Source: Candidatus Thorarchaeota archaeon
Lineage (GTDB): Archaea; Asgardarchaeota; Thorarchaeia; Thorarchaeales; Thorarchaeaceae
Assembly (NCBI GenBank): GCA_016839445.1
Contig: JAEOUG010000027.1
Span: 25,075-45,074 of the forward strand
Direction: 5' to 3'
DNA length: 20,000 nucleotides
The translations under genes were made by a program, and so were the position numbers. This document shows positions 2,932 through 20,000 of this stretch, one piece after another (positions within the stretch are counted from its first letter, which is position 1; each line of letters begins with the position of its first letter). The notes below the pieces were generated by a model. That model made no database searches. It saw only the letters and a list, made by a program, of their open reading frames with translations, and was not told the DNA's origin.

Positions 2932-3057
2932 AATAGTCTGAAATACTAGGGGATACTGAAATATGATTCAATTGAAGCGTGGCACGGGAGAGTTTCAAAA
3001 CCTAGCCTGAGACCTCGCCACTCTGCTCTCGCGTGGTTGCGGAGAGGAGATTGCATT

Positions 3058-6000
3058 ATGTTACTTCTGGGGAAGAACCAGGGCAGAGTTCTAGCCCTTC
3101 TTCTTGGGTGCCTGATGATGTTGGCGCCGGTTGCTGGACTGATTGGTTTGAGCTTCTCGCCGGAATCTGAAGGTATTACGAACGCAATTCCAGAGAGGGA
3201 GATGCCAACCCTAGCTCTGGATGACCCGCCATTGCGGATGACAGCATCCTTGGCTTATGATTCGGAATCAGACAGAATCATATTTTTCGGAGGGACAGTG
3301 CAGAATCTCGATGTCGGTCTCACTGACACCTGGAGCTACGATTATGGCACGAATACCTGGACAAACATGTCCCCCGCAAGCAACCCGCCAGCATGTGAGT
3401 TTTACTCCATTGCGTATCACTCTGGTGAAGACAAAGTGGTCCTCTTCGGAGGCCATGTCAGTGGCACCTCCGGGAATTGGCTGAACCACAACGAAACATG
3501 GGTTTACGACTATAACACAAACACGTGGACCGATATGGACCCGGTCTTGGCTCCCCCGGCTATGTCAGGCGGAGCAATGGACTATGACAGCGAGTCAGAT
3601 CTCATTGTACTGCATGGAGGCTGGCCAGATGGAGGCGTTACGGAAGTCCTGTCCGAGACTTGGACGTATGACCTGACAACTAACACCTGGACGAATGTTA
3701 CGACCTCCAACGAACCGTCGCCGCGTACGTGGGGTGCGATGGCTTACGACAGCGGCTCAGATCTCATGGTGTTCTTTGGGGGATTCCAGTATCAGCCAGA
3801 GTGGCTCACTCTGGACGACACCTGGACCTTCGACACCGACACAAACACATGGACTGAGATTGACACAGTAGGTCCTGAGATTGTAGGAGAACTAGTGTAT
3901 CACACCGCATCTGACAAGATCATCTTCTACGGTGGCGCTGCCGATGTAAGTGAACTCATCGAAGACCTTCGTTCTGAAACCTGGGTCTACGACACAGACA
4001 CTGAAGCCTGGGAGAAGATGACTCTCGATGTAGCGCCACCCGTTAGGGCTCGAGGTGAGTTGGCATATGACATCGAATCCAACAGAGTGATTCTCTTTTC
4101 GGGGGTGTGGGACGGAGGATGGGAAACAGAAGTTGTCCTCGGTGACTGCTGGTCCTACGACCTGGGAAACAACCTTTGGAACAATGTGGACTGGGACTGG
4201 CAAGAGGTAACGCCTGCCGAGTCTCCGGGATTGAGGTGTGGTTCACCGCTTGTATATGACATCGAATCAGACCGAATGGTGATCTTCAGCGGATGGCCGA
4301 ATCTTCACGCAGACGGAGCCAGATACAACGACACATGGACCTACGATGTCAACACCAACACTTGGACCAACATGTCACCTGAAGTTTTGCCAACTGGACG
4401 TGGAGGCCACGCCATGGCCTATCATGAAGCTGAGGATGTCATGGTTATGTTCGGCGGATCCATCGGTTACCAGGTAGACGATGAGAAGTACGTAGCCGAC
4501 ACGTGGACCTATGATTTGAACTCGAACACCTGGACGAACATGTCGCCTGCAAGTAGTCCAACTCGGCGCACCTTCACTACTATGGCCTACGACAATGATT
4601 CGGAAATCATCGTCCTGTTTGGAGGGTTCATGACAGACCATGGAGCGAGTCATGAAACGTGGGAGTACAACCTCACGGCGAATATTTGGACCAACACCAC
4701 TACATCTACGCACCCCGATAAGAGATTCTTCGGAAGCCTCTTCTATGATTACACAGACAATCGAATGCTTCTTGCTGGCGGTGTGAGCTGGGAGGGAATG
4801 CTGTACGACATATGGGAGTACGACGTAACGACTCACACTTGGTCGGAGATTGTCCCTGCGAATGACCCTCCAACCTTTGCCTTTGTGGCGACATACGACC
4901 TAGAATCAGAACTGGTCATTGCCTATGGTGGTCCAACGAACATGGAAGAAGACATCTTCGTTGAGGAAACATGGAGTTTCAACTTCACGTCGAACACATG
5001 GAACAACACATTCTCACCAAACAGCCCGAGTGGGCGCAGTAGACACTTCCTCGCGTATGACATTGAGTCTGATCTGACCGTGCTCTACGGCGGAGCACTT
5101 CCTGATGGGAGTGAGGGAGAAGCACTCGGAGACACCCGGATATACGACTACAGGGTCAATGAAGTAGTCCTGAAACCTCCGCCCCCGGAGGGGCTCGCAG
5201 TGACACAGGGCACGAATAGCCTCGCGCTGTCGTGGACCCCGCCGTCCGGCGCGGAGGGCTTTGAGATCACTGGGTACAGAATCTACAGAGGTGACGAGGT
5301 CGGTGAGTATGAAGTCATTGCCGAAGTCGGATCCGTCACAACATACACAGACTTGACGACAGGGTTCGATATCACGTACTACTACGTTGTCACAACACTG
5401 GCTTCGACAGGAGAATCTGAGTTCTCCGACCCTGACGAGGGTTCGCTCTCCTTTTCGCTATATGATGATGGCATCTACACGTTCATCGCATATGGAGACA
5501 CGAGAGCCAGTGACGAGACCGCCGTGGCCGCTATCCATGATGACTTGGTCAGCAGATACATTCAGCTCTCTGACCCAGAAATGGTGATACACAGTGGCGA
5601 CATGGTCCTTGCGGGCGGAGAGGAGTATCAGTGGACGCTCTTCGATGCCTCGATTCAGGCGTTGTGGGATTGGGATCCCGACCTCGAGTTCTTTGGTGCT
5701 GCGGGGAACCACGAGTTGTATACAGACGTCTATGGAGTGAATGACGAGGACCTCAGCACCTATCAGAACTTCTTTGATTTCTCATCTGTCGTCGATGAAC
5801 CTGGCGAAACTGAGCTATACTACTCCTTTGACCGACATGGAGTCCACTTCATCATATTGAACACAGTCATGGACTGGGACGATGACGCATACACCTGTCC
5901 CACAGCACAGATGGAGTGGCTCGAGGCAGACCTAGCCAAAGGCAGTGAGGTGATTGTGGTCGTCACTCACTACCCACCGTTCTCTGTCCTCGAGAACAGG

Positions 6001-6420
6001 CCGGACAGGCTTGATCAGGCAGAGAGCATAAGGGACACCTTCCATGACCTCTTCGTAGAGCATGGAGTGGACCTTGTCTTCACCGGACACAACCACTACT
6101 ACTATCACACATCCTTGGACGGAATCCAATACGTCACCTCAGCAGGGGGAGGCGCACCTCTCTACAGCATCCAGAAGTCAGGCACAGACTGGAAAGCCGG
6201 CGACGTTGGTTTCAGCGAGTACCACTACTGTGAATGTAAAATCAACCCTGCAATAGGCAGGCTGACTATCAATGTGGTTCTCATGAACGGGTCTATCGCC
6301 GAGTCGTTCTATCTGACCATTCCATCAGCCGGTTTCCCAATCGGTCTCACCCTCGTAGTTGTCGGAGGTGCTGTAGCTGCTGTCCTCGTTGTGATGGTAG
6401 TCTACAAACGGAGGAGATAG
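3058..6420 (+). CDS. Membrane-anchored surface protein: signal/TM, 12 Kelch-type blades, FN3 domain, purple-acid-phosphatase-like metallophosphoesterase, C-terminal TM anchor
   Basis: The track ORF starts at TTG 3037. ATG 3058 is preceded by GGAGAGGAG and gives MLLLGKNQGRVLALLLGCLMMLAPVAGLIG, a signal or TM segment. There are twelve repeats of (D/E)TW.YD...N.W(T/N). An FN3-like segment follows (LAVTQGTNSLALSWTPP...GYRIYRG...YYYVVT). The metallophosphoesterase motifs appear in order: YGDTR, HSGDMV, GNHE, VVTHYPP, GHNHYYYH. The C-terminus is GFPIGLTLVVVGGAVAAVLVVMVVYKRRR. Confidence 0.9.
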   Translation: MLLLGKNQGRVLALLLGCLMMLAPVAGLIGLSFSPESEGITNAIPEREMPTLALDDPPLRMTASLAYDSESDRIIFFGGTVQNLDVGLTDTWSYDYGTNTWTNMSPASNPPACEFYSIAYHSGEDKVVLFGGHVSGTSGNWLNHNETWVYDYNTNTWTDMDPVLAPPAMSGGAMDYDSESDLIVLHGGWPDGGVTEVLSETWTYDLTTNTWTNVTTSNEPSPRTWGAMAYDSGSDLMVFFGGFQYQPEWLTLDDTWTFDTDTNTWTEIDTVGPEIVGELVYHTASDKIIFYGGAADVSELIEDLRSETWVYDTDTEAWEKMTLDVAPPVRARGELAYDIESNRVILFSGVWDGGWETEVVLGDCWSYDLGNNLWNNVDWDWQEVTPAESPGLRCGSPLVYDIESDRMVIFSGWPNLHADGARYNDTWTYDVNTNTWTNMSPEVLPTGRGGHAMAYHEAEDVMVMFGGSIGYQVDDEKYVADTWTYDLNSNTWTNMSPASSPTRRTFTTMAYDNDSEIIVLFGGFMTDHGASHETWEYNLTANIWTNTTTSTHPDKRFFGSLFYDYTDNRMLLAGGVSWEGMLYDIWEYDVTTHTWSEIVPANDPPTFAFVATYDLESELVIAYGGPTNMEEDIFVEETWSFNFTSNTWNNTFSPNSPSGRSRHFLAYDIESDLTVLYGGALPDGSEGEALGDTRIYDYRVNEVVLKPPPPEGLAVTQGTNSLALSWTPPSGAEGFEITGYRIYRGDEVGEYEVIAEVGSVTTYTDLTTGFDITYYYVVTTLASTGESEFSDPDEGSLSFSLYDDGIYTFIAYGDTRASDETAVAAIHDDLVSRYIQLSDPEMVIHSGDMVLAGGEEYQWTLFDASIQALWDWDPDLEFFGAAGNHELYTDVYGVNDEDLSTYQNFFDFSSVVDEPGETELYYSFDRHGVHFIILNTVMDWDDDAYTCPTAQMEWLEADLAKGSEVIVVVTHYPPFSVLENRPDRLDQAESIRDTFHDLFVEHGVDLVFTGHNHYYYHTSLDGIQYVTSAGGGAPLYSIQKSGTDWKAGDVGFSEYHYCECKINPAIGRLTINVVLMNGSIAESFYLTIPSAGFPIGLTLVVVGGAVAAVLVVMVVYKRRR
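3232..5165 (+). repeat. Array of 12 Kelch-type beta-propeller blades (protein-level repeat, probably two 6-bladed propellers)
   Basis: The blade cores are DTWSYDYGTNTWTNMSP, ETWVYDYNTNTWTDMDP, ETWTYDLTTNTWTNVTT, DTWTFDTDTNTWTEIDT, ETWVYDTDTEAWEKMTL, DCWSYDLGNNLWNNVDW, DTWTYDVNTNTWTNMSP, DTWTYDLNSNTWTNMSP, ETWEYNLTANIWTNTTT, DIWEYDVTTHTWSEIVP, ETWSFNFTSNTWNNTFS and DTRIYDYRVNEV. The period is about 50-55 aa. Similarity at the DNA level is only partial. Confidence 0.85.
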
Positions 6421-6438: not shown

Positions 6439-6780
6439 TCACTTCGGAGGTAAGTGCGAGGCATAGGTGACGGACAACGACAAGAGCCGACGCCGAACGT
6501 CTGCCTGAGAAAAGACTGAGTCAGGGACAGTGATGTACTCCCTCATCGCTCGTCCCTCCTTCGGTTCGAACTGGGAGACCTCGTCAAACTCAGTGAAGAC
6601 TCCCTCCTGATCCTCTGCAGGCAACCTCAGGAAGACTGTGTCCTCGAAGACACCAGCAAACATTTGGCCGTTAATGAAAAGCGCGTACTGTCCGAACATC
6701 TTCCGGCGCTCGAACTTGACACCCTTGAGCGACTCCTCAAGGAGATCCAGTAGATCCTGCGAGGGTTTGCTCCACTTCAT
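6439..6780 (-). CDS. TfoX N-terminal domain family protein
   Basis: 113-aa ORF. The core RKMFGQYALFINGQMFAGVFEDTVFLRL matches the TfoX_N pattern (MFGG.gly.nG.mFa...dd.LylK). It converges on the Kelch gene with an 18-nt gap. Confidence 0.65.
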   Translation of the reverse strand: MKWSKPSQDLLDLLEESLKGVKFERRKMFGQYALFINGQMFAGVFEDTVFLRLPAEDQEGVFTEFDEVSQFEPKEGRAMREYITVPDSVFSQADVRRRLLSLSVTYASHLPPK

Positions 6781-7883: not shown

Positions 7884-8543
7884 TTAGGCTTTTGGGTCAC
7901 TCAGAACGCTAAGGAGATACTCCCAAGTGTGTGTCTTCATGCCCACTTCCCTGAATCGTGCTAGATCATCAGTAGTGTCAAGGTCAAGGAATGTGTCCGG
8001 GGAGGCCCACTCCCTGAACTGAAGTCCCCTCGAGTATGAAGCCTCCTGGTGCCGGGAGAAACTGCCGGGCCCAAAGGACGGATCTATCACATCGGAAGGT
8101 ACTCGAAGGAGAAGATTCGTGCCACCATTCCTGGACCGCGCGGCTACGACAACCTTTCCTCCGGATTCCTCAGCAGCCTCGATCACACCGGAGATCGATG
8201 ACTCTCTGAGAAGGGGCACATCGACTGGCAGAATCAGGACTGAGTGTGAATCATGTCGCTCAATCAGTGTTCTTGTAGCCAGCATAAGTGCGGCATTGAG
8301 CCCAGCAGGACTCTTTTCAAGAATGGTTTCAAGGCCTATCGAGGAAGCGAATCCCAGGACCTGTGGATCAGGCGAAACCACAGTTGCGGTCTCGACAGCG
8401 TCATGACTAAGAAGCACAGTCGAAACGTCATGTAGCATGCTAAGCACAAGCTGGGATATCTGGGACCGCAAGAGAGTGGACTCCAAACGCGACTTGGCAA
8501 CCTTCAGTGAGGCCACTGGAATAATAGCATGGGTCTCTAGCAT
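7884..8543 (-). CDS. cofC: 2-phospho-L-lactate/phosphoenolpyruvate guanylyltransferase (F420 biosynthesis, CofC/FbiD)
   Basis: The N-terminus HAIIPVASLKVAKSRL, followed by ILPVDVPLL, GGTNLLL, FGPGSFSRH and LDLDTTDDL, fits the CofC pattern. It lies 8 nt downstream of cofD. Confidence 0.85.
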   Translation of the reverse strand: MLETHAIIPVASLKVAKSRLESTLLRSQISQLVLSMLHDVSTVLLSHDAVETATVVSPDPQVLGFASSIGLETILEKSPAGLNAALMLATRTLIERHDSHSVLILPVDVPLLRESSISGVIEAAEESGGKVVVAARSRNGGTNLLLRVPSDVIDPSFGPGSFSRHQEASYSRGLQFREWASPDTFLDLDTTDDLARFREVGMKTHTWEYLLSVLSDPKA

Positions 8544-8551
8544 GGCTCTGC

Positions 8552-9502
8552 TTACCTACCATGGATTGAGAGGACAATCCTCGCAAGATCCATCTTGTCC
8601 TCCAAAGTCTTCATTATCGTATTAGTAACAACTGTCTTCAGACCTAGACCTTCAATCTGAGCTTCGAGGGCCCTGTCCTGAGCGTCCAGGACATAGTGCG
8701 ACAGGAACCGCCTGTAGTGGTGTGCTACTCCAAATGCAGTAGCCTCAAGGCCCAGGGATTTCATGAACTTGACCGTAGGACCCTTGATGGCCTCTCCCCC
8801 AACTAGGGGTGAAACCGCCACAACAGGGCACTTCACGTCCTCAAGGGCACTGGCAATTTGCTTCACACTCAATATTGGACCAATTGAGGCGATGGGATTA
8901 CTGGGGCATACGACTACGAGGTCGGCAGAGGAAATCGCGTCCAATACGCCGTCGGCAGGACTGGCGGTATCTGCTCCAACGTACATGACTTCCTTGATTT
9001 CAGCTTCACATCTCATCCGCACAAAGAACTCCTCGAAATGTACCAGAGAACCGGTTCCCAATCTCACATGGGTGCGGACTGAGTCATCAGTCATGGGTAT
9101 GAGCTGAACATCGTTAAGCCCAACGTACTCACAGAGCTCTGAGGTCACCTCAGAGAGCTTCTTGCCCTCCCTCAGACGGCTCGTTCTCAGGACATGCGTG
9201 GCTAGGTCCTGATCTCCAAGACTGAACCACCTGTCCTGCCTGTAGAATCTGCCCAGTGCCTCTAGGAACCTGAACGTGTCATCTGCGATGCCCCAGCCCT
9301 TCTCAGTGTCTACCAGTCCAGCAAGGGTATACATCACTATGTCTACATCAGGTGATATGTGCAGGCCAAAGAGGTCTATGTCATCCCCCGTGTTGCACAC
9401 GACAGTGAGTTCATGGTCGCCAAGAACCCTGTGTAGTCCTAGGGCAAGCTTTGCGCCGCCAATGCCTCCACAGAGTGCAACAACCTTCACCTCTGCAATC
9501 AC
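8552..9502 (-). CDS. cofD: 2-phospho-L-lactate transferase (LPPG:FO transferase, F420 biosynthesis)
   Basis: GTG start. VVALCGGIGGAKLALGL, VVCNTGDDIDLFGLHISPDVDIVMYTLAGL and GWGIADDTF are the characteristic CofD N-terminal motifs. Confidence 0.9.
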   Translation of the reverse strand: MIAEVKVVALCGGIGGAKLALGLHRVLGDHELTVVCNTGDDIDLFGLHISPDVDIVMYTLAGLVDTEKGWGIADDTFRFLEALGRFYRQDRWFSLGDQDLATHVLRTSRLREGKKLSEVTSELCEYVGLNDVQLIPMTDDSVRTHVRLGTGSLVHFEEFFVRMRCEAEIKEVMYVGADTASPADGVLDAISSADLVVVCPSNPIASIGPILSVKQIASALEDVKCPVVAVSPLVGGEAIKGPTVKFMKSLGLEATAFGVAHHYRRFLSHYVLDAQDRALEAQIEGLGLKTVVTNTIMKTLEDKMDLARIVLSIHGR

Positions 9503-9526
9503 CCTGTACTCAGCAGCATGGCTCTC

Positions 9527-10138
9527 TTATAACATCTGCACAATCTCTTCGAGCGGTTTCCTTTGTGGCATCTCAGGAGGGACTGATGTGTGGCCCAACA
9601 GAATGAAGGCCTGTGGTTCAACATCATCCCCAAGCTCTAGAGTCTCAACAATGGCCCTCTTAGTGAACAGGGGCGCACAGAGCCAGCACGATGCTAGGCC
9701 CTCTGCACAGGCAGCCAGTAGAGCATTCTGAATCGCCGCCGCAGTACTTTGAACTGCCATTGTGTGTTCGTGGAGATTGCGTTCATCATCACTGTACTTC
9801 CACATGTCCTTCATTGTCAACGCGGCAAGAATCAGAACTGGAGCCGACATCAGTAGCTTCCGAGAACGAGAGACCGTTTCCTCTGCCGGTTCCTGAGCCC
9901 CACCGTCGTCAAGCAGGTCTCGAAGATACTCCTCTGACATCCTGTTCACCATCTGCGTCCTCACATCACCCTTCGGTATTACGAAGAACCTGGCAGGCTG
10001 CGAGTTGTGAGCCGAAGGTGCCAGCGTCGCGACCTCCAGAACCTTCCTTATGGACGCAAGGTCAACCGGTTTCTCCTCAAAGACCCTTACGCTACGCCGT
10101 GATGACACTACATCATAGAAATCGCGCATCATAGTCAC
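9527..10138 (-). CDS. Nitroreductase-fold flavoprotein resembling the C-terminal domain of bacterial FbiB
   Basis: SRRSVRVFEEKPV...ATLAPSAHNSQPARFFVI is the nitroreductase N-terminal signature. The C-terminal segment GLASCWLCAPLFTKRAIVETLELGDDVEPQAFILLGH resembles my recollection of the FbiB C-domain. It lies 24 nt upstream of cofD on the same strand. Confidence 0.7.
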   Translation of the reverse strand: MTMMRDFYDVVSSRRSVRVFEEKPVDLASIRKVLEVATLAPSAHNSQPARFFVIPKGDVRTQMVNRMSEEYLRDLLDDGGAQEPAEETVSRSRKLLMSAPVLILAALTMKDMWKYSDDERNLHEHTMAVQSTAAAIQNALLAACAEGLASCWLCAPLFTKRAIVETLELGDDVEPQAFILLGHTSVPPEMPQRKPLEEIVQML

Positions 10139-10156: not shown

Positions 10157-10993
10157 CTAGAGCTTCTGACAGCTGGGGCAGTAGTATATCGCACCGCCCA
10201 GATAGCTCTCCTTCACTATCTTTGTGTTGCAGACATCACAGGGTGTTCCTGCGGTCTTGCTGTGTAGTGCTCTCCGGTAACCTCCAGATGCACCATACAG
10301 ATCCACTTCACAGTCACGTCCGCCGAGATCAATCATCTTCTGTAGCTCGCGACAAGACACCTCGTAGAGCTTCTTAATCTGAGTTTCAGAGAGTTCTGAC
10401 ATCTCCTGCTTGGGATGGATACCTGAGTGGTAGAAGATGTCTTGGATGACTCCGTTGCCGACTCCATTCAGTCCCGGCTCGCTGACAAAGAACTTCTTGG
10501 CACTGAACTTCTGTCCTTCGGGCAAACCCGTGATCAGATCCCTGAAGGCCTCCAGTGTGAAGTCCTTTGAGAGAGGTGTCAGCTTGTCCTTCGAGATGTG
10601 GGGGTGCTCTCCGAGGTTCTTCCGCTCCAGAAGTCTTGTCTCACCCCACCCAGATATGGTGACAGATAGGTAGTCATCATCCTCGAACCTGAGGAGTAGC
10701 TGGTGTTTCTTTGGCAGACTAGTCGAATCCTTGTGGTAGAGAATCCTCTCTCCTCCACATCCCAAGCTCAGTACATAATCCGGTAAGATCTCAGTCAGGA
10801 TGATATTCCCGTTAGACCAGCTCTTGCCTATCTTCCGGCCAGACACGATTCTGCTGAACTCCTTGTCAGAGTGCTTCCCTACAAAGGCGAATTTGTGGGG
10901 GCTCTCGTTTCTCACGGCAGTCCGGATCGTTTTCCCTTTGAGGGCCTTGTTCATCTGCTCGGCAAACACAACGGCCTCTGGCAGTTCTATCAT
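10157..10993 (-). CDS. Fpg/Nei (formamidopyrimidine-DNA glycosylase / endonuclease VIII) family protein with a non-canonical N-terminus
   Basis: The N-terminus is MIELPEAVVF, where the canonical form is MPELPEVE. The H2TH region reads GLNGVGNGVIQDIFYHSGIHP. The C-terminal zinc finger is CDVCNTKIVKESYLGGAIYYCPSC (C-x2-C-x16-C-x2-C). The start codon is ATG at 10993. Confidence 0.85.
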   Translation of the reverse strand: MIELPEAVVFAEQMNKALKGKTIRTAVRNESPHKFAFVGKHSDKEFSRIVSGRKIGKSWSNGNIILTEILPDYVLSLGCGGERILYHKDSTSLPKKHQLLLRFEDDDYLSVTISGWGETRLLERKNLGEHPHISKDKLTPLSKDFTLEAFRDLITGLPEGQKFSAKKFFVSEPGLNGVGNGVIQDIFYHSGIHPKQEMSELSETQIKKLYEVSCRELQKMIDLGGRDCEVDLYGASGGYRRALHSKTAGTPCDVCNTKIVKESYLGGAIYYCPSCQKL

Positions 10994-11161: not shown

Positions 11162-13636
11162 CTAGGACTTGGGCCTTCGCTGCTTGTAGAACAAGAGCCC
11201 AACAATGAGGATGACAGCAGCTGCGGCTCCAGCAACAACCAGCAACAGCGGGAACTGGCTGGGGGGTGGAAGCACATGGACCGTCACCTCATCCATCGCA
11301 GAGTAGCCGTTGTTGTCGTACACCACGATCTGGAAGACATATGTTCCACGGGTCAAACCGTCGAGGTCATAGACTACCAGCTCTCCGGACCAGGCTATGT
11401 TGACTACCTCGGAGGCATCCTGGTAGATAACGTACCTGACCGGGAGCGGGCTCTCTGGATTCCAGGCTATCTCGAACCCAGTTTCGCCTTCCACGAACTC
11501 GATGTCAGCAGGCTGATCGATGGTCGGCCTTATCATGAAGGCAATCTCGTTGATGAACAACTCGTAGTTGTCAGCATAGGTTGAGTTGTCGGTGTCATCG
11601 AGATACTCAGAGATGGCAAACAGATTGCACAGTGCGTTCCCACCGACGCTCAGGACTATGCCGGCCTGACTGCTGTTGTAGGTGGACGTTGCTCCTGCCA
11701 AGGCTGTGGCATTGTCCAGAAGGTCTACATTTACGAAGTCCGTCGTGAATAGGTCATGACTGGACTCGATTGTAGCTGCACCGTATTCAACAGGCACATT
11801 GAACACTGAGTGCCCCTCATCCCACAGATATATGTCCATAGGACCACTGGTGACATAGCTGTCGGTGCTGTTCCATCCAAGGTAGTTCCACATCGTGTTG
11901 TAGGAGCTCGACCTGAAGTACCAGTCCCTCCAAATCAGCTTGCCGCCTCCCTCCAAGTGACTTCTGATTAGAGTATGTGAGCCAGTAGGTGTGTAGTAGT
12001 TTGCATCGATGACCACCAGGCTCCATGACTGCATTGACAGACACTCGTTGAACACGGCCAGATTATTGGTCATGAAGTAATCAAGGCCAAGCTCGTTGAG
12101 AGCCAGAGCCGCTGGTGACCTGTAGAAGGTGTAGTCGATTCCAAGTGAACCAGGACCGTCGGTGTAGAGGAGGATATCGGAGCCTCCTGAACAGAGCCAG
12201 TTGGCGATACTCTCGGCTAGATCAACATTGTCCTCATAGTCAATGTAGTTGCCGATGAAGTTGATGTCTCCCGCGAGAATCACTCGCCCTTGTCCGACTT
12301 CTTGTGCCACTAGCAACTCTTCGTCGGGTGCATCTAGCCAAATCAGAGTGAAGGCATCGCCCCAAGACTCGACTAAGGATCCTCCACTGAATTCTGCAGA
12401 TGCCACACCCTCAGTTGCTGGATGAAGAGTCACGTTTGTGGTGACCTGTTCTAGACTGAAGTCAGTCGTGGTTATGTTCATGTCATAGCCTGCAAGAATC
12501 TGCCGGACGTTCTGATTCTGATCTGCAAATGACTGCCACTCGCCAGCCAGCAGCAGACCACCGCCCTCAGAAACCCACTGGTGAATTGCATTGATTTCGG
12601 TAGATGTGTACGCTTCATCAGGAGCATTGATGTACAGCATGTCGTATTGCCTGAGGAAAGCCAGTGTCAATGGTCCATCATCAGGATACGCCTTGTCGCA
12701 GGTGAATCTGTTTCTCACCCAGTAATCCCGCAGCGCAAAGTAGCGTCCTTCACCCGAGTAGCCGGTCGGGTCACCTGCATCAACCGCGTAATACGGGGTG
12801 TGTGTCAGGTCAAACAGGACTCGGCCCTTGGGTCGCATCGCCAGCCAGTCAACCGCTTTAGTCAGCAAATCTGCATCAGGATTGCGGTCGGGATTGTCAT
12901 CGCCGAATATCTGGACCACTCGTCCACCCTGATACTCAGGATCTCGGGCCACGCCGTTCGCCCAATACGTGCCGTCCTGTGCAAGTGTCAAGGTCGTGTA
13001 CTCAGACGCAGTGGAACATGTCAGCAGCAAGCTTGTGTTGTAGGCAGCCCAATCGAAGGTGTTTGTGATGGTGGCCCCGACCTCATAGTCCTTAGTCACA
13101 GGGTGGCGGTTCGCGATAGTCTGGTACGTTGCCCAGACATAGTTCCAATCCTCGCCGTAGTCGTTGGTCCCTTCAGTGTCAGGAACCATGATTCCGAAGT
13201 AGTTGATGTAGTTGATTGCCCCATCTATGCTTAGTATGCCGCCTCCCCCCAGCCAGTACTGCTTCACGAGCGACGTGATGTTCTCACGAGGGCTGTTGTC
13301 AAACATGACGAAGACATCATAGTCAGCCACCTTCAGGTCGTGGTTCAGAATGTCCTGAAAGGTGAGCGTCACCACTTCATAACCAGCAGCCTCAAGCATC
13401 AGCGCAATAGCAGTGATGTTTGTGCTAGGCATTCCGCCGTGTCCGTAGGCAGGCAGGGTACCATTCGGCTCATCATATATGGCCACACGGATGTCCCGAG
13501 GAACTTGTCCTGCGAGTAGGGAGTCAACCTGAACCGATTCTGATTGCCCCTCGTTGACATCGCTTGTGGTCACTGGAACGAAGAAAGTCCCAGCAATGAG
13601 GAGCACAAGCAATGGTAGGATGTAAGTCCTTTTCAT
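11162..13636 (-). CDS. Surface protein with three tandem alpha/beta (flavodoxin/GATase1-like, DUF4350/GldG-like) modules, an Ig-like domain and a C-terminal TM anchor
   Basis: The track ORF starts at GTG 13669. ATG 13636 is preceded by GGGAGAT and gives MKRTYILPLLVLLIAGTFFVPV, a signal or TM segment. There are three ~215-aa modules. An Ig-like segment follows (IEFVEGETGFEIAWNPES...YVFQIVVYDNNG). The C-terminus is QFPLLLVVAGAAAAVILIVGLLFYKQRRPKS. Function is unknown. Confidence 0.85.
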   Translation of the reverse strand: MKRTYILPLLVLLIAGTFFVPVTTSDVNEGQSESVQVDSLLAGQVPRDIRVAIYDEPNGTLPAYGHGGMPSTNITAIALMLEAAGYEVVTLTFQDILNHDLKVADYDVFVMFDNSPRENITSLVKQYWLGGGGILSIDGAINYINYFGIMVPDTEGTNDYGEDWNYVWATYQTIANRHPVTKDYEVGATITNTFDWAAYNTSLLLTCSTASEYTTLTLAQDGTYWANGVARDPEYQGGRVVQIFGDDNPDRNPDADLLTKAVDWLAMRPKGRVLFDLTHTPYYAVDAGDPTGYSGEGRYFALRDYWVRNRFTCDKAYPDDGPLTLAFLRQYDMLYINAPDEAYTSTEINAIHQWVSEGGGLLLAGEWQSFADQNQNVRQILAGYDMNITTTDFSLEQVTTNVTLHPATEGVASAEFSGGSLVESWGDAFTLIWLDAPDEELLVAQEVGQGRVILAGDINFIGNYIDYEDNVDLAESIANWLCSGGSDILLYTDGPGSLGIDYTFYRSPAALALNELGLDYFMTNNLAVFNECLSMQSWSLVVIDANYYTPTGSHTLIRSHLEGGGKLIWRDWYFRSSSYNTMWNYLGWNSTDSYVTSGPMDIYLWDEGHSVFNVPVEYGAATIESSHDLFTTDFVNVDLLDNATALAGATSTYNSSQAGIVLSVGGNALCNLFAISEYLDDTDNSTYADNYELFINEIAFMIRPTIDQPADIEFVEGETGFEIAWNPESPLPVRYVIYQDASEVVNIAWSGELVVYDLDGLTRGTYVFQIVVYDNNGYSAMDEVTVHVLPPPSQFPLLLVVAGAAAAVILIVGLLFYKQRRPKS
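11525..13498 (-). repeat. Internal triplication of a ~215-aa alpha/beta module (protein-level)
   Basis: The modules span roughly aa 58-280, 281-495 and 496-715, counted from GTG 13669. Each has the same landmarks in the same order. The entry strands are RVAIYD / RVLFDLTH / DILLYTDG. The second strands are YDVFVMFD / YDMLYINAP / WSLVVIDAN. The glycine motifs are GGGGILSIDG / EGGGLLLAGEW / EGGGKLIWRDW. Next come HPVTKDYEVGATI / HPATEGVASAEF / HSVFNVPVEYGAATI. The late strands are GGRVVQIFGDD / GQGRVILAGDIN / AGIVLSVGGN. Confidence 0.6.
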
Positions 13637-13822
13637 TCTCTTATCTCCCGAGCGATTCACAGCATGCACTGAATTCCGTCAAGAAGAGTATGGCGCGCGT
13701 GTAGAACCGCATCAATTGTACTGACTGCGTCAGAGCAGGCGCATATAATACTTCTACGTAGTCTCTCCGCCTCGGTCCCGCTCGACCAAAAGGGATATGA
13801 CAACTTCTATGGCACTTCGCCT

Positions 13823-14491
13823 ATGGCAAGCTCCGCAGTCAGAAAGGCAATCTACGTTATCGCATTCTATGGGGTCTATTTCAACATCTTTCTGCTTCTG
13901 CTCGTACCTTCTATTTACAGCACCATCCTGTACGTTTCGTTTCTGGTGGTCTACTACGGAGTTGGCATAATCGACACTGCCGTCAGGCCAGTAACAGAGG
14001 AAGACAAGGGGGTCGACAAGTACACTCGGTACCTTCTCATCTTCTGGCTTCTGCACCCGTTCATATTCACCCTGATGTTCTACGAGAACGCCTACTTCAC
14101 ACAGCTGTATCTTGCTCCGCAGACGGCCTCAATACTAGCCTGGACGGGACTACTCGTCTATGCGGCTGGAGGACTGATTTCAATAGCCAGTAGGATTCAG
14201 CTAGGGAGGCATGGGAGCGGTAGGCTTGTGCTCCAACAGAATCACGGCTTGGTCACATCTGGCCTCTACACGCGCGTGCGCCACCCCATGTACACAGGAG
14301 GATTGATTGGCAGTATCGCCTTCGGCATGGTGTTCCGTAGCCTCTTCGTGATGGTTCTAGACGTCGCTGTCTACTTCGTGATATTCCGCCAGCGAATGCA
14401 GAGAGAGGAGGAACTCATGGAACAGGAGTTCGGAGAGGAGTACTTGGACTACAAGAGAAAGACAAGACGTCTTCTTCCGGGCGTCTATTAG
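13823..14491 (+). CDS. Isoprenylcysteine carboxyl methyltransferase (ICMT/Ste14-like) family membrane methyltransferase
   Basis: Multi-TM 222-aa ORF with the family's C-terminal signature: GLVTSGLYTRVRHPMYTGGLIGSIAFGMVF...RQRMQREEELMEQEFGEEYLDYKRKTRRLLPGVY. Confidence 0.85.
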   Translation: MASSAVRKAIYVIAFYGVYFNIFLLLLVPSIYSTILYVSFLVVYYGVGIIDTAVRPVTEEDKGVDKYTRYLLIFWLLHPFIFTLMFYENAYFTQLYLAPQTASILAWTGLLVYAAGGLISIASRIQLGRHGSGRLVLQQNHGLVTSGLYTRVRHPMYTGGLIGSIAFGMVFRSLFVMVLDVAVYFVIFRQRMQREEELMEQEFGEEYLDYKRKTRRLLPGVY

Positions 14492-14845: not shown

Positions 14846-15454
14846 TCAGAGCGTGATCTCAGTTCCCGCGGTGTATGCTGCATCCAAGGCGCCAGTGGCC
14901 CACAGCTGGTATCGGTACGTGCCGTGAACTACACCGTTCGCTGCGACAGTGGCATTACCAAAGACATAGATTGAGGGGATTCCGTTTCCTCCCGAGGTCA
15001 GAATCAGAGCAACAGGCTTGCCCTGGAAGTCGACGCGCTCCAGGTAGCCTAGCATGGCCACATGGGGTTGTCCTCCGTTGGTGGGACTTCCGAGCACAAT
15101 CAAGTCATAACCCGTTACATTGGTGGGAGTCTGGGACGAAGTTGTGGTGATGTTGACACGCCAGTCTGAGTCCACTAGGCCTCGGACGAAGGCATTCACG
15201 ATGTCCTCGTTCCAGCTTGTGACTCCTGGTCTGAACACGACAAAGACAGTGCCTGTGGCTCCTGCGGGGTTCAGAGTCTGCACATCTCGTATAGTCGCAC
15301 GGCCGTTGTAAGCAACAACCGCGACGCTAGTGACAACGAGAGATGCGACAATCACGACGAGCACAATGCTGCAGAGACGTCTCCTCCTCATGGGCTCATC
15401 TGGTTTCACCATGACTAATGAATCTTCAGTCCTTCTTCCATGATCCATAGACAT
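14846..15454 (-). CDS. Membrane-anchored flavodoxin-like fold protein (domain predicted to lie outside the cell)
   Basis: The N-terminal basic cluster MRRRR is followed by the TM segment LCSIVLVVIVASLVVTSVAVVAY. Next comes a flavodoxin-like pattern: TVFVVFRPG...NAFVRGL...GYDLIVLGSPTNGGQPHVAMLGYLERVDFQGKPVALILTSGGNG. Later in-frame ATG codons are possible starts. The 5' end overlaps the upstream gene by 29 nt. Confidence 0.55.
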   Translation of the reverse strand: MSMDHGRRTEDSLVMVKPDEPMRRRRLCSIVLVVIVASLVVTSVAVVAYNGRATIRDVQTLNPAGATGTVFVVFRPGVTSWNEDIVNAFVRGLVDSDWRVNITTTSSQTPTNVTGYDLIVLGSPTNGGQPHVAMLGYLERVDFQGKPVALILTSGGNGIPSIYVFGNATVAANGVVHGTYRYQLWATGALDAAYTAGTEITL

Positions 15455-15953
15455 ACCAAGTGCGGAACCCGAGGAGTATCACCGTATAGACAAGAACGAT
15501 GAGGAGGACTCCGCCGTACACAATCTCCAATGGGAAGAGAAGGGTTACTCCGACCGCGCCAATGAGGAAAATGCCATAGTATTTCCCCACGGGGTCATAG
15601 GTCGGTTCTTCTGAAGTGGACGTCGCAAGGAACAAGGTGAACATGAGAAGGAAGAGAGCCAAGATCCAGATGGGGTAGATATGCGTCAGCACAAAAGCTG
15701 CGAAGGAGAACATCACAAGCACGAAGTCAGCCAGAGGGTCCAGATACGCCTCTATCTTTGATGAAGCAGTGGTGCCCAGCCTTCGTGCGAGCATGCCATC
15801 CACTAAGTCTGAGCCAAAGGCAACCGTGTACAGAATAACAGAAGCCTCGAAGTAGTCTGAAAGGAGTGTGTAGAAGAAGGCAGGTGCAATGCAGAGTCGA
15901 ACTAGGACTACCACGTACGGGAGCTTCTGCACTCTGCTCTGATCTTGGCCCAA
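15426..15953 (-). CDS. CDP-alcohol phosphatidyltransferase family protein (small, 175 aa)
   Basis: Multi-TM protein with SDLVDGMLARRLGTTASSKIEAYLDPLAD. This matches the D-x2-D-G-x2-A-R...D-x3-D signature, although Glu occupies the usual Gly position. The start is non-ATG (TTG 15953 or GTG 15932). Confidence 0.75.
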   Translation of the reverse strand: MGQDQSRVQKLPYVVVLVRLCIAPAFFYTLLSDYFEASVILYTVAFGSDLVDGMLARRLGTTASSKIEAYLDPLADFVLVMFSFAAFVLTHIYPIWILALFLLMFTLFLATSTSEEPTYDPVGKYYGIFLIGAVGVTLLFPLEIVYGGVLLIVLVYTVILLGFRTWYVYGSWKKD

Positions 15954-16083: not shown

Positions 16084-19000
16084 ATGGAAATCAAGGTCAG
16101 AGGAGCAAAGGAGCACAATCTGAAGTCTGTGGACGTCGACATAGGTGACGGACTGACAGTAGTCACTGGGATATCAGGTTCAGGCAAAACATCGCTTGTC
16201 TTTGATACCATGTACCACGAGGCAAGACGGAGGTTCTTGGACGTCTTCAGGTCAGGTAGCTCGACAGTCCGTATGCCCCCAGCAGATGTGAAATCGGTGA
16301 GTGGCATAGGACCTACAATCGCAATCGAGCAGAATGTCCTCAACCTCAATCCTATGTCAAGCTTGGCAACAGCTTCCGGACTACATCCATTCCTCAGGCT
16401 TCTCTACTCAAGATTCGGCACAAGGCTCTGTCTTGGGTGCGGTAACAAGCTAAGTGTGCTTCGGGAGGATGAGGTTGTGTCGCTCCTGAGGCAGGACGCA
16501 GAAGACAGGGACCTTGAGGTATTTGCGCCACTCGTAACAGCTGTGAAGGGAAGTCATCGGACGCTGCTGGACCTTCTCGAGAATCAGTTTGGCCGCTCGG
16601 CCCTCATCGTAGATGGAAAGCCATATGACAGCTCTCCTCTCGACCCGAAGAAGGCCCATGATATCAGAGTGAGAATAGGCGCGCTCGGCCCCAGGTCCAG
16701 GATTGCGGATTTCAGAGAGGCAATAGAAATCTCATCTGTGCTGGGGGCGAACGCGGTGTCGCTCAAGTCAGGAAGCGAAACGAGGGAGTATGCCCTCAGC
16801 AACCTCTGTGTGCATTGCGGGAAGTGGGCTCGAGAAGTCGAACCAAAACACTTCAGGATGGACTGTCCCTACTGCAGGGGCAAGGGCTGCGAGCGATGCT
16901 CAGACACTGGGGTTCATCCTCTGGCTGCATCTGTCAGGTGGGAGGGCAAGACACTCAAGGAACTCCTCGCCCTGACGGTCGAAGAAGCAAGAGACCTCCT
17001 CGATGCGTCTCATTTGCCCCCAACTGCGGCGCGTCTTGTATCAGAGATCGCCAAGAGGCTTCATGCTCTCAGCACAGTGGGTTTAGGCTACCTCCAGCTC
17101 GATAGATCCTCTCCCAGTCTTTCGCGCGGTGAATCGCAGCGAGTCCGACTTGCCGTCTCTCTGACCAGTCGGCTCGAAGACATTGTGCACGTCTTGGACG
17201 AACCGACAATTGGCCAGCATCCACATGATGTGGCGAACCTGATGCCGTCATTTAGGAGACTGCTTGGACCAGTGGTCTTCGTAGAGCACGATAGACTGGC
17301 TGCTTCCTATGCAGACACCGCAGTTGACCTCGGGCCGGGAGCGGGACACGCAGGCGGAGAGGTTACGTTTCAAGGGACCCCTGCTGAGCTATGGCGAAGC
17401 GACACAACGACTGGACGATACTTCAGCCTGAGAGAGCGTGTTCCCAGATTCGAGCAACGCGATTACCCGGATGAGTTCATCACCATCAGGTCAGCCTCCC
17501 GACACAATCTGAAGGGGATTGATGTGCGAATCCCCCTGAAACGTCTGACTGTGATTACGGGAACGAGCGGGTCAGGCAAGAGCACCCTGGTTGAGCATGT
17601 CCTGGTTCCCTCTCTGCAGAAGAGCAAGCCGATAGGATGCAAGGCACTAGAAGGCAGAAAGGTCAAGCCAATCATGGTGGACCAGAAACCCGTGGGGAAA
17701 AATCCCAGGTCGAACCCAGGAACCTACACAAAGCTCTCCGACATGGTTCGAGACCTCTATTCGTCTGAGACTGGCCTATCGGCGTCACACTTCTCATTTA
17801 ACCGACCTGAAGGGGCATGCACTGGCTGCAAGGGCATGGGCTCAGTTGAGGTGAAGATGCGGTACCTTCCATCCATCTGGATAACGTGCTCCGACTGCAA
17901 TGGTCGTAGGTTCAAGGACGAGGTCCTCGAGTCGCGGGTCAAGTTCGGAGACCACGAGCTGAGTATTGCGGACTTCTATGACCTCTCCATAGGTGAGGTC
18001 CGGGATCTACTACGGGACGACAAACGGCTTCCCGAAGGCAAGAGGAAGGCATCCACGAACATCTTGGATGCACTGAGCACGATTGGACTTGGCTACCTGA
18101 AACTGGGCCAGAAATCCCCAAGTCTCTCGGGAGGAGAATCTCAGAGGATCAAGCTGGCCAAGTTCCTCGGCAAGAAGTCGCTGTCGTCAAGAGTGATAGT
18201 ACTCGATGAGCCAAGTTCCGGTCTCCACGCCGCTGACTTGAGCGGCCTCCTGAAGGTCCTCCACAAGTTGGTTGAGCAAGGAGCGACAGTAGTGGTTGTG
18301 GAACACAATACAGACGTGATTCGGTCTGCGGATTGGGTCGTGGACCTCGGGCCACAGGGAGGGCCAAACGGCGGAGAGGTCCTATACTGTGGCCCAGCCT
18401 CTGGTCTTGCTGATGTTGAGGAGTCTCTAACCGCTCAGGCTCTGGCAGAGGAGGAGAAGCTCAGACCAAGAGGCAGGCCCAAGAGGTCTAACGCCCTCGC
18501 TGATGTGATCCGTATCAAGAATGCCACCGCGAACAATCTGAAGTCGGTGAGCGTAGACATCAAGAAAGGAAAGATGACAGTGGTCACTGGCCCGTCGGGA
18601 TCAGGGAAGTCATCATTGATTCGCGACGTTCTCCAAGCAGAGGCGGACAGACGCTTTCTGGAGTCGCTGTCGATCTATGAACGACAGGGCATGTCAGAGG
18701 GGCCAGAAGCACCCGTTGACACCATAACCGGGCTGGGGGTCTCTCTGGCGGTCTCAACCCGAAGAAGAAGAGGAGCTGGATGGTGGGCAGTCTACGAAAG
18801 GCGAGCGACTGTAGGAACGGTATCGGAGGTCTCTAATCAGATAGACGTCCTGTTTGCTGCTCTGGCCAAGAGGGCGTGTCTAGAGTGCGGCGCCGAGATG
18901 AAACGGAAGGACAAATGGATTTGTGAGAAGTGCGGAAGCACTGACACCCTCGATACACCACGAGCCTTCTCCCCTTCAACGTACTATGCCGCCTGCAACG

Positions 19001-20000
19001 AGTGCAGCGGAGTTGGTTCCAAGAACCAGCCAGTCGTCGAGAAGCTCATCATTGCCCCCGAGAAGCCAATCTGCAAGGGCGCGATGTACTCTCCAGGATA
19101 CTTCCCGGCGAAGTACTTCTGTGAGCCAACGAGTGCGGCCTCAGGAAGACTGATTGCTTTGGGGCACAAGTTTGGGTTCGACCCTCAGACGACTCCCTGG
19201 CGTGAGATCAGTGAGGAGGGGAAGAGAGCCTTTCTCTTTGGGGATGATGAGAAGCTTGAGTACACGTACCTTGGTACTCATCGAGGGAAGAGAGCAGAAG
19301 TCACAGCAAGGAGTCGCTGGTCGGGCTTCTTCCGACTGGTAGGCGACTGGGACGTTGGCCAGACCTTCACGGACCGCGTAGCATGCGAAGTATGTGGAGG
19401 GACCGGCCTCAAACCGAAGTACCTCAGTTATAGGATTGCAGGACATGATGTCCACCGTTTGAAGAACAAGACAGTGTCGGCGCTTCTCCAGATTCTAAGA
19501 GAGGTAAGGGCCCCTGAAGATGACGTCTTCTTCGCAGCCGAGAATCTGAGGAGGGCCCTCACGAAGCTGGAGTTTCTCGAGCAGGTCGGTCTCGGATACA
19601 TCCACCTGAACCAACCGTCTCTATCACTCTCTGCAGGAGAAGCTCAGAGAGTGATTCTTGCAGGAATCCTCGGCAGCGGCTTGACCGCTCTGACCGTACT
19701 CCTAGACGAGCCTTCTAGAGGCATGCACCCATCCGAGGTCGGTGGTCTGGTAAGGGCTCTTGAAGCACTCAGAGACGAAGGCAACACACCCATAGTGGTT
19801 GAGCACGACCCTGTGGTGATCCGCGCGGCCGACGAGCTTATAGACATGGGGCCGGGAGCAGGTGCGGGAGGCGGAAGGGTTGTGGCAATGGGAAGCCCTG
19901 AGAGCGTTGCCAAGGCGGCCACGGTCACCGGGAGGTGGCTTCGAGGGGAGCGTACCATAGACTACTCGACTGCTATACGAAAACCGGACTTATGGATGAC
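16084..20000 (+). CDS. uvrA: Tandem-duplicated UvrA-like ABC ATPase (UvrA-UvrA fusion), 3' end outside the window
   Basis: I translated frame +1 by hand from ATG 16084 to base 20000. That gives 1305 codons with no stop, which is why the ORF is absent from the track. The N-terminus is MEIKVRGAKEHNLKSVDVDI. Walker A motifs lie at 16168-16191 (GISGSGKT), 17560-17583 (GTSGSGKS) and 18589-18612 (GPSGSGKS). ABC signatures lie at 17119-17139 (LSRGESQ), 18124-18144 (LSGGESQ) and 19627-19647 (LSAGEAQ). Walker B motifs are VLDEPT, VLDEPS and LLDEPS. UvrA-type CxxC zinc modules occur throughout. Confidence 0.9.
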   Translation, partial: MEIKVRGAKEHNLKSVDVDIGDGLTVVTGISGSGKTSLVFDTMYHEARRRFLDVFRSGSSTVRMPPADVKSVSGIGPTIAIEQNVLNLNPMSSLATASGLHPFLRLLYSRFGTRLCLGCGNKLSVLREDEVVSLLRQDAEDRDLEVFAPLVTAVKGSHRTLLDLLENQFGRSALIVDGKPYDSSPLDPKKAHDIRVRIGALGPRSRIADFREAIEISSVLGANAVSLKSGSETREYALSNLCVHCGKWAREVEPKHFRMDCPYCRGKGCERCSDTGVHPLAASVRWEGKTLKELLALTVEEARDLLDASHLPPTAARLVSEIAKRLHALSTVGLGYLQLDRSSPSLSRGESQRVRLAVSLTSRLEDIVHVLDEPTIGQHPHDVANLMPSFRRLLGPVVFVEHDRLAASYADTAVDLGPGAGHAGGEVTFQGTPAELWRSDTTTGRYFSLRERVPRFEQRDYPDEFITIRSASRHNLKGIDVRIPLKRLTVITGTSGSGKSTLVEHVLVPSLQKSKPIGCKALEGRKVKPIMVDQKPVGKNPRSNPGTYTKLSDMVRDLYSSETGLSASHFSFNRPEGACTGCKGMGSVEVKMRYLPSIWITCSDCNGRRFKDEVLESRVKFGDHELSIADFYDLSIGEVRDLLRDDKRLPEGKRKASTNILDALSTIGLGYLKLGQKSPSLSGGESQRIKLAKFLGKKSLSSRVIVLDEPSSGLHAADLSGLLKVLHKLVEQGATVVVVEHNTDVIRSADWVVDLGPQGGPNGGEVLYCGPASGLADVEESLTAQALAEEEKLRPRGRPKRSNALADVIRIKNATANNLKSVSVDIKKGKMTVVTGPSGSGKSSLIRDVLQAEADRRFLESLSIYERQGMSEGPEAPVDTITGLGVSLAVSTRRRRGAGWWAVYERRATVGTVSEVSNQIDVLFAALAKRACLECGAEMKRKDKWICEKCGSTDTLDTPRAFSPSTYYAACNECSGVGSKNQPVVEKLIIAPEKPICKGAMYSPGYFPAKYFCEPTSAASGRLIALGHKFGFDPQTTPWREISEEGKRAFLFGDDEKLEYTYLGTHRGKRAEVTARSRWSGFFRLVGDWDVGQTFTDRVACEVCGGTGLKPKYLSYRIAGHDVHRLKNKTVSALLQILREVRAPEDDVFFAAENLRRALTKLEFLEQVGLGYIHLNQPSLSLSAGEAQRVILAGILGSGLTALTVLLDEPSRGMHPSEVGGLVRALEALRDEGNTPIVVEHDPVVIRAADELIDMGPGAGAGGGRVVAMGSPESVAKAATVTGRWLRGERTIDYSTAIRKPDLWM

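Follow-up and report, generated by a model that had tools for sequence, protein, structure and literature searches.

What does a UvrA do when two of its units, which in the canonical protein meet as protomers of a dimer, are joined in one chain, and joined so that each has lost what the other has kept? This question is raised by the last gene in a 20,000-nucleotide stretch of Candidatus Thorarchaeota archaeon DNA (GenBank assembly GCA_016839445.1, contig JAEOUG010000027.1, positions 25,075 to 45,074 of the forward strand), which we call the window. [quoted passage not shown] As we discuss below, the long UvrA is probably a single-chain, hard-wired asymmetric UvrA pseudo-dimer that senses DNA as the ATPase of a two-gene module, one that has spread laterally.

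Frame +1 is open from ATG 16084 to the window end (16084..20000, + strand), exactly 1305 codons ending in ...AIRKPDLWM, as an earlier sequence-only reading of this DNA had reported. These are the first 1305 of 1629 codons, and residue n of the protein falls at window coordinate 16084+3(n-1). The full-length protein (P0001), carried by a 99,112-bp NCBI contig, is identical across all 1305 window residues and contains four ABC modules in 1629 amino acids, which bears out the earlier expectation of a fourth module and of some 1600-1700 amino acids in total. Its C-terminus (last 52 residues) was also recovered in an independent read assembly, the short Logan contig L009. On the source contig, the long UvrA gene should end at about window coordinate 20973, and a partner gene, described below, should start at about 20970. 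Judged by profile and database matches, the protein belongs to the UvrA family: the 1305-residue fragment scored 984 bits against TIGR00630 (excinuclease ABC subunit A; curated cutoff 729.8), with unit 1 alone (643 bits) and partial unit 2 alone (313 bits) each below that cutoff, and it matched PDB entry 2r6f with an E value of 5e-185. Public annotation of the full-length relatives goes no further than 'excinuclease ABC subunit A' or 'ATP-binding cassette domain-containing protein'.

Is the fusion real? Two neighbouring uvrA-like genes might have been merged by a sequencing or assembly error, and frameshifts do occur in some copies from metagenome-assembled genomes (MAGs). We found, however, that 117 independent full-length relatives (1600-1700 amino acids, 54-100% identity), from different samples and phyla that include Thorarchaeota, Promethearchaeota, Bathyarchaeota, Chloroflexota, and Desulfatiglandales, cross the junction between the units with a fixed linker length. 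The inter-unit segment has 38-39 residues in 109 of these 117 proteins, and the basic linker itself (aa 781-808; 18424..18507, +) combines 35% mean pairwise identity and a near-invariant Pro795 with a tightly fixed length across the family. The frameshifts, found for the most part in long-read assemblies, occur at scattered points of collinear genes and none is located at the junction. Short upstream open reading frames at 11 loci were considered as unfused versions and rejected, as they proved to be collinear copies with scattered frameshifts. No stand-alone unit was present among the 150 closest cluster representatives, where the short matches were fragments of the fusion that continue into unit 2. 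An artefact is thus refuted, and the misassembly or masked stop that the sequence-only reading had wished to see excluded is excluded by the relatives that read through the junction. Units 1 and 2 share 35.8% identity over 654 shared core columns, and over the shared core unit 1 is 41.3% and unit 2 is 37.6% identical to E. coli UvrA. Because each unit resembles E. coli UvrA at least as much as it does the other unit, the fusion is old or joined paralogs that had already diverged.

The two units have lost reciprocal accessory domains. Unit 1 (aa 1-780; 16084..18423, +) has two ABC modules, contains a UvrB-binding domain (UBD), and is without the insertion domain (ID) when aligned with E. coli UvrA. 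Unit 2 (aa 809 onward, extending past the window to aa 1629; 18508..20000, +, within it) aligns with the ID present and the UBD absent. In a three-way alignment, unit 1 retained E. coli UvrA residues ~118-256 and was without ~283-404, and the reverse held for unit 2. The same gaps appeared against G. stearothermophilus UvrA, where the alignment of unit 1 skips the ID and that of unit 2 starts only past the UBD; these are precisely the domain gaps that a UvrA-family search had been predicted to give. The insert in signature domain I measures ~160 residues in unit 1 and ~184 residues in unit 2, compared with 296 residues in E. coli UvrA.

The zinc modules mark where each domain was kept or removed. 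In unit 1, the first zinc module (16429..16818, +) surrounds the retained UBD fold, with CLGC at aa 116-119 (16429-16440) and CVHC at aa 242-245 (16807-16818) separated by 122 residues. The second is collapsed to CPYC-x4-CERC (CPYCRGKGCERC; 16864..16899, +, aa 261-272) in place of the ~115-residue ID, and the four cysteines and both glycines of this knuckle are invariant or nearly so in the family. In unit 2, it is the first zinc module that is collapsed (CLEC-x11-CEKC; 18877..18933, +, aa 932-950; cysteines invariant), with no UBD, and the second (18994..19395, +) that surrounds a retained ID, as supported by profile and conservation, with CNEC at aa 971-974 (18994-19005) and CEVC at aa 1101-1104 (19384-19395) separated by 126 residues. 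Conserved patches of this ID read GAMYSPGYFP, FLFGD, and DWDVG. The C-terminal zinc finger is kept in both units; that of unit 1, in signature domain II, spans CTGC...CSDC (17818..17898, +) and its cysteines are invariant. No ID was detectable elsewhere in unit 1 by domain hidden Markov models (HMMs) or by the length of the signature-domain-I insert. All landmark positions of the sequence-only reading (cysteine pairs, 122- and 126-residue inserts, knuckles, K499, and the LSRGE, LSGGE, and LSAGE signatures) were re-found where it had placed them, and the reciprocal loss that it proposed holds family-wide.

Multiple results support the assignment of the unit 1 insert as a UBD. By sequence, the Pfam model UvrA_inter gave a borderline score of 23.5 bits against a cutoff of 23.3, and all PDB sequence matches of the isolated 133-residue segment were UvrA UBDs. 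An AlphaFold model of the segment, computed from the family alignment, had a pLDDT of 90.9 and a pTM of 0.82. The top structural matches of this model were all UvrA UBDs, with a root-mean-square deviation of about 2.5 Å to isolated fragments: UvrA in the UvrA-UvrB complex (3uwx_A; TM-score 0.82), the isolated UvrA interaction domain (3fpn_A; 0.74/0.82), and the UvrA interaction domain bound to Mfd (4dfc_B; 0.74/0.80). The predicted structure thus confirms that the 122-residue insert adopts a true UBD fold, and the profile and model comparison that might have overturned the proposal of a UBD-like insert upheld it (TM-scores 0.74-0.82 to solved UBDs).

Sequence conservation in the family points to purifying selection. 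All 117 full-length relatives share the layout with only a UBD in unit 1 and only an ID in unit 2, none of the four modules varies in its Walker A, Walker B, or H-loop motif, and every zinc-module cysteine pair is invariant in both units. Mean pairwise identity is 66-75% for the ATPase cores, 57% for the ID (18% near-invariant columns), and 41% for the UBD (6% near-invariant columns), which is the least constrained globular domain.

How unusual is this combination? Unit 1 was compared exhaustively by phmmer with 1.84 billion cluster representatives, and we classified the top 150 matches, assigning each unit by the length of its signature-domain-I insert and by domain HMMs. Nearly all of these representatives were double-length (1550-2343 amino acids), and the idea that the fusion itself is special did not survive this search. 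Thirty-five combined two complete units, 32 a complete with a UBD-only unit, 23 two ID-only units, 9 a UBD-only with an ID-only unit as in the present family, and 24 showed rarer combinations, including UBD-only plus complete and complete plus none; 27 were incomplete or fragmentary. As the list is skewed toward relatives of the query, these counts are not frequencies in nature. The ID-only plus ID-only form corresponds to the duplicated class II UvrAs that the sequence-only reading had mentioned, presumably those named 'class III', and it is distinct from the architecture described here. Only the UBD-only plus ID-only class carries each accessory domain exactly once per chain, and its family stands almost alone among the 150 in the R-G-A-G pattern of its signatures. 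PRK00635 (NCBIfam NF001885), a chlamydial-type model and the only curated one for long UvrAs, scored 616 bits on the window fragment against a cutoff of 3054, a cutoff that none of the double-UvrA classes tested reached. Double UvrAs as such are therefore common; what is new here is the UBD-only plus ID-only combination and its partner gene. In the literature covered, to which the definitions of UvrA classes did not belong, neither this architecture nor a duplicated-UvrA class nor the partner was described, and an earlier mention is possible.

The partner is a conserved gene of 344-345 codons that follows the long UvrA gene with a four-base ATGA stop/start overlap in Thorarchaeota, Bathyarchaeota, Anaerolineae, and a further lineage, so that the two genes are translationally coupled. 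It lies at 158-1192 in L009, 14896-15933 in L002, 14887-15924 in L003, 14866-15903 in L004, and 14857-15894 in L006 (L numbers denote individual loci). In the organism of the window, the partner is P0154, on the same 99,112-bp contig as P0001, and L009 shows the order directly: the last 52 residues of P0001 are followed by the ATGA overlap and P0154. When 185,579 species genomes were scanned with an alignment of the partner, 128 proved to encode it; these are uncultured MAGs without exception, from Asgard archaea, Bathyarchaeia, Theionarchaea, and many Chloroflexota, with scattered occurrences in Zixibacteria, Proteobacteria, and Clostridia. Complete or near-complete genomes with the module include CP070761.1, CP070683.1, and CP070784.1, and it is also present on large Chloroflexota contigs. 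A collinear long UvrA stood directly upstream at 73 of 76 assessable loci, and 48 of 49 intact upstream reading frames had the UBD-only plus ID-only architecture. The two proteins also diverged together at nearly equal rates (Mantel r 0.90, a value reached in 0 of 2000 permutations). Departures from the usual arrangement were seen at L053 (2752-11044), where a gene for an SGNH/GDSL hydrolase lies between the long UvrA and the partner; at L054 (9986-11032), where no UvrA precedes the partner; and at L069 (8352-11014), where just the last ~548 UvrA residues do. No synteny was conserved past the UvrA-partner pair across the module loci.

These linkage data bear on a simpler explanation, that the long UvrA is an ordinary UvrA of nucleotide-excision repair, loading one UvrB through the UBD of unit 1 and handing over to UvrC, with uvrB and uvrC elsewhere in the genome and the toroid-shaped partner accessory or unrelated. 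The family profile cutoff is passed, the UBD fold is retained, the canonical system does form UvrA2UvrB1 complexes (PMC11985968), some archaea are known to have a bacterial-type UvrABC system, and genes for other repair proteins (Fpg/Nei, AlkD, AlkZ-like, DNA ligase, XPB) lie near some loci. A tblastn search with the E. coli proteins found no match to uvrB or uvrC within ±10 kb of the module at 80 loci, a result that says little, since uvrA, uvrB, and uvrC are generally unlinked. Against this explanation, the strict ATGA coupling and the co-divergence in both archaea and bacteria argue for an integral partner, and presence in 128 of about 185,579 species genomes, patchy over phyla, suits an accessory system that moves laterally and not a core repair gene. 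A canonical uvrA would also be expected in Chloroflexota, and the UvrB-contact positions equivalent to R216 and E222 of E. coli UvrA are not conserved in the family. Taken together, an ordinary repair UvrA is possible but doubtful.

What kind of protein is the partner? Its predicted structure (pLDDT 85, pTM 0.88) is an alpha/alpha toroid with a loose likeness to class II terpene cyclases and complement thioester domains (best TM-score 0.48, ~17% identity). Three to four QW repeats are present, the polar clusters GYRR, CRTNTT, and RET are invariant, and the C-terminal tail is basic, with KRF as its last residues. Pfam matches were solely to squalene-hopene cyclase repeat domains (weak SQHop_cyclase), no NCBIfam model scored above its cutoff (cyclase models gave 38-42 bits against cutoffs of 323-851), and the catalytic DxDD motif occurred in 2 of 42 partner sequences.

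A toroid of this type invites a second alternative, in which the module would act independently of UvrB and UvrC in the manner of the class II proteins DrrC and Ecm16, the ATPase detecting and evicting a DNA-bound genotoxin or a bulky adduct and the toroid capturing or processing it or acting on the lesion. Ecm16 confers echinomycin resistance without UvrA, UvrB, UvrC, or UvrD, and its ATPase is needed. Toroids of the terpene-cyclase and thioester-domain type typically enclose hydrophobic ligands, the partner has invariant polar clusters, the two-gene unit is self-contained and laterally spread, and the canonical UvrB-contact residues are lost. The fold of the UBD, however, is kept under selection at least for its core, in contrast to class II proteins, which have no UBD. 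Moreover, neither a biosynthetic gene cluster nor an efflux pump occurs in the neighborhoods seen, the partner lacks DxDD and any assignable activity, and such a partner has no experimental precedent. We consider this alternative improbable.

A third alternative, defense against phages or plasmids by a system of the 'ABC ATPase plus effector' kind, would fit the patchy lateral distribution and the compact two-gene layout, and UvrA-like ATPases do match the PADLOC models mad3 and mad8. Those matches nevertheless reflect generic UvrA/ABC-fold similarity. PADLOC gave no match to the partner, in which searches also turned up neither a nuclease nor any other toxic effector domain; the neighbors are housekeeping or repair genes rather than defense islands; and the module was absent from the plasmid, phage, and viral-contig collections searched. 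A role in defense is accordingly very hard to credit. As a separate observation, P0001 matched the mad3 model with an E value of 2e-112 (in six stretches) and the mad8 model with an E value of 1e-54, which identifies those components of the MADS system as UvrA-like ABC ATPases.

The ATP sites provide a second layer of asymmetry. In UvrA, the proximal site is made of ATP-binding domain I and signature II, the distal site is formed by ATP-binding domain II and signature I, and the dimer interface is built by the ATP-binding I domains (PMC12796330). Unit 1 carries the Walker A sequences GISGSGKTS (ATP-binding domain I; 16168..16194, +), whose lysine, K35, is present in 117 of 117 relatives and lies within the proximal site, and GTSGSGKST (ATP-binding domain II, K499; 17560..17586, +), identified by motif conservation. 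Its signature I is LSRGE (17119..17133, +), with the arginine in 117 of 117 relatives and a place in the distal site of unit 1, and its signature II is the canonical LSGGE in the family alignment (18124..18138, +). Unit 2 carries GPSGSGKSS in ATP-binding domain I (K842; 18589..18615, +), again by motif conservation, and LSAGE as signature I (19627..19641, +; alanine in 116 of 117), part of its distal site; the remaining Walker A lysine of the chain is K1338. Both deviant signatures therefore fall in distal sites, which are the ones that bear the UBD and the ID. The proximal site of unit 2 deviates as well. Its first Q-loop (aa 886-903; 18739..18792, +) is degenerate in the alignments, lacking the glutamine in 117 of 117 relatives and containing in its place an arginine-rich insertion, sometimes with tryptophan (VSLAVSTRRRRGAGWWAV / VSTRRRRGAGWW). 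Only the proximal site of unit 1 is fully canonical among the four sites of the chain. Because Q-loops adjoin the DNA backbone in C. thermocellum UvrA (PMC12796330), the arginine-rich loop of unit 2 is plausibly a new DNA contact.

Recent structures suggest what such a chain might do. In a cryo-EM study of M. tuberculosis UvrA, the homodimer turns asymmetric on damaged DNA. One 'recognition-ID' then holds the flipped-out lesion, while the opposite protomer has let go with its own ID and offers its UBD to the first UvrB; UBD-UvrB and ID-DNA binding within one protomer are sterically exclusive; and a UvrA2UvrB1-DNA complex was observed (PMC11985968). The fused chain keeps exactly the domains engaged in that state, which is why we read it as a permanently asymmetric pseudo-dimer. 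Units 1 and 2 would meet at their ATP-binding I domains, as protomers do in a UvrA dimer, with the fixed-length linker connecting the last part of unit 1 to the first part of unit 2, and DNA would lie across both units, probably contacted by the arginine-rich loop of unit 2. The single ID of unit 2 would serve as the lesion-holding 'recognition-ID', and the single UBD of unit 1 would recruit one effector, which may be host UvrB, the toroid protein, or both. The fusion would thus fix permanently the asymmetric state of the canonical UvrA2-UvrB1-DNA intermediate, and the four non-equivalent ATP sites may mirror the same division of labor.

The identity of the recruit is where the evidence divides. 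The retained UBD fold argues for UvrB or a UvrB/Mfd-like domain, whereas the loss of the contact residues and the presence of an obligatory partner speak for something other than UvrB. The sequence-only reading had called the domain 'UvrB-docking'; the UBD fold stands, but docking of UvrB is tentative. In E. coli UvrA, R216 and E222 form part of the UvrB interface, and the double mutant disrupts it (PMC3025350). For the equivalent positions we adopted the one register on which phmmer and profile-guided MAFFT agree. A three-sequence MAFFT alignment that placed R216 opposite a family arginine was set aside, as the other two methods share a different register; a near-invariant arginine, R211, lies two positions away from the R216 equivalent.

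Several points weigh against the permanently asymmetric pseudo-dimer. First, a covalent chain cannot separate into monomers, as the current hand-off model invokes (PMC11985968). Second, in the adopted register, which is uncertain by a few residues within the UBD, the R216 equivalent is variable (E/Q/K/D) and the E222 equivalent is glutamine in 67 and glutamate in 11 of the 117 relatives. Third, weak conservation of the UBD fits neither a strong UvrB contact nor tight contact with a highly conserved partner. Fourth, among the E. coli DNA-binding positions R712, R722, R724, and R730 (PMC3025350), equivalents of the last three are missing from both units and that of R712 is kept in unit 1 only; with most of these arginines lost, DNA binding must differ in detail from that of canonical UvrA. 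Finally, domain and structure searches recognized no DNA-related domain in the partner.

In a bolder reading, the UBD has been re-targeted to the toroid protein as a new lesion- or adduct-processing effector, and the two proteins form a self-sufficient DNA-surveillance system without UvrB or UvrC. We regard this reading as rather unlikely. If it were true, the toroid would bring to DNA repair a fold with no link to that process so far, and anaerobic sediment archaea and Chloroflexota would have a repair or detoxification route of their own.

Other repair genes occur near the module. An Fpg/Nei-type DNA glycosylase is encoded in the window at 10157-10993 (-), about 5 kb upstream of the long UvrA. 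In one Thorarchaeota chromosome (L002, 9061-9909) such a gene is the one directly upstream of the long UvrA, and others lie near the module at L024, L051, and L072, for a weak linkage in three scattered lineages (Thorarchaeota, Anaerolineales, and Bathyarchaeota). According to a 2026 preprint, UvrA modulates Fpg activity in D. radiodurans. An AlkD-like DNA alkylation repair enzyme (2146-2892, +; PF08713, E 3e-47) is also present in the window, and AlkD stands beside an AlkZ-like gene in a related Thorarchaeota locus (L003, 18980-20896); linkage of AlkD to the module is confined to six closely related Thorarchaeota loci. A minus-strand run of F420-related genes (7884-10138) encodes a CofC-like guanylyltransferase (7884-8543), the 2-phospho-L-lactate transferase CofD (8552-9502), and a member of the nitroreductase family (9527-10138), as would fit DNA of archaeal origin. 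Two large proteins are also encoded, one of 1127 residues (3037-6420, +) with long Kelch beta-propeller, fibronectin type III, and calcineurin-like metallophosphoesterase domains, and one of 835 residues (11162-13669, -) with DUF4350/ABC_transp_aux-like and PKD-like domains. The remaining neighbors are a 480-residue protein with an N-terminal ArsR-type winged helix (120-1562, +), a TfoX_N-domain protein (6439-6780, -), a PEMT/ICMT-type membrane methyltransferase (13823-14491, +), and a CDP-alcohol phosphatidyltransferase (15426-15953, -), none of which recurs by the module in other genomes.

The long UvrA touches two long-standing questions in bacterial excision repair: which complex is the working sensor, UvrA2UvrB2 or UvrA2UvrB1, and how a lesion in one strand is handled by a dimer that is symmetric. 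It is a natural protein in which the transient asymmetry of UvrA appears to be written into the sequence, with a single UBD, a single ID, and four ATP sites that are not equivalent. In the fused chain, these sites and domains can be mutated one by one, which is impossible in a homodimer, and a chain unable to fall into monomers offers a test of whether dimer dissociation is needed at hand-off. The toroid protein is an uncharacterized candidate repair factor in Asgard archaea, Bathyarchaeia, and Chloroflexota, a separate lead that could prove more novel than the fusion. More broadly, single-chain double UvrAs are a large, combinatorially diverse, and essentially unstudied group.

How does the long UvrA compare with known systems? 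By their defining features, it falls outside the class I, class II, duplicated-class-II, and chlamydial-type UvrAs. Each unit is collinear with class I UvrAs (E. coli, G. stearothermophilus, M. tuberculosis, and C. thermocellum) at 38-41% core identity, and the likeness extends to two ABC modules, zinc modules, a C-terminal zinc finger, and canonical UBD and ID folds. A class I protomer, however, has both the UBD and the ID, whereas the units of the long UvrA hold one each, so that each accessory domain is present once per chain rather than twice per dimer. The long UvrA differs further in having two units per chain, LSRGE and LSAGE distal signatures, no proximal Q-loop glutamine in unit 2, neither the conserved UvrB-contact residues nor most DNA-contact arginines, and an obligate downstream partner gene. 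Unit 2 shares the layout of class II UvrAs (D. radiodurans UvrA2, Ecm16, and DrrC), with the UBD absent and the ID present. Those proteins are homodimers of ~840-residue chains that act without UvrB; the long UvrA, by contrast, is a fusion whose unit 1 has the opposite layout, with the UBD kept. Other double UvrAs share four ABC modules per chain, but the partner gene is tied to the UBD-only plus ID-only class. The partner, in turn, loosely shares the alpha/alpha-toroid fold of class II terpene cyclases without their DxDD motif. The nearest functional parallel comes from mismatch repair, where the MutS homodimer is a symmetric ABC-family lesion sensor that works asymmetrically and eukaryotic MSH2-MSH6 is a derived form with that asymmetry fixed in sequence. 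MSH2-MSH6 belongs to another family and places its asymmetry in a heterodimer of two gene products, whereas the long UvrA would hold it in one chain; the likeness is functional only.

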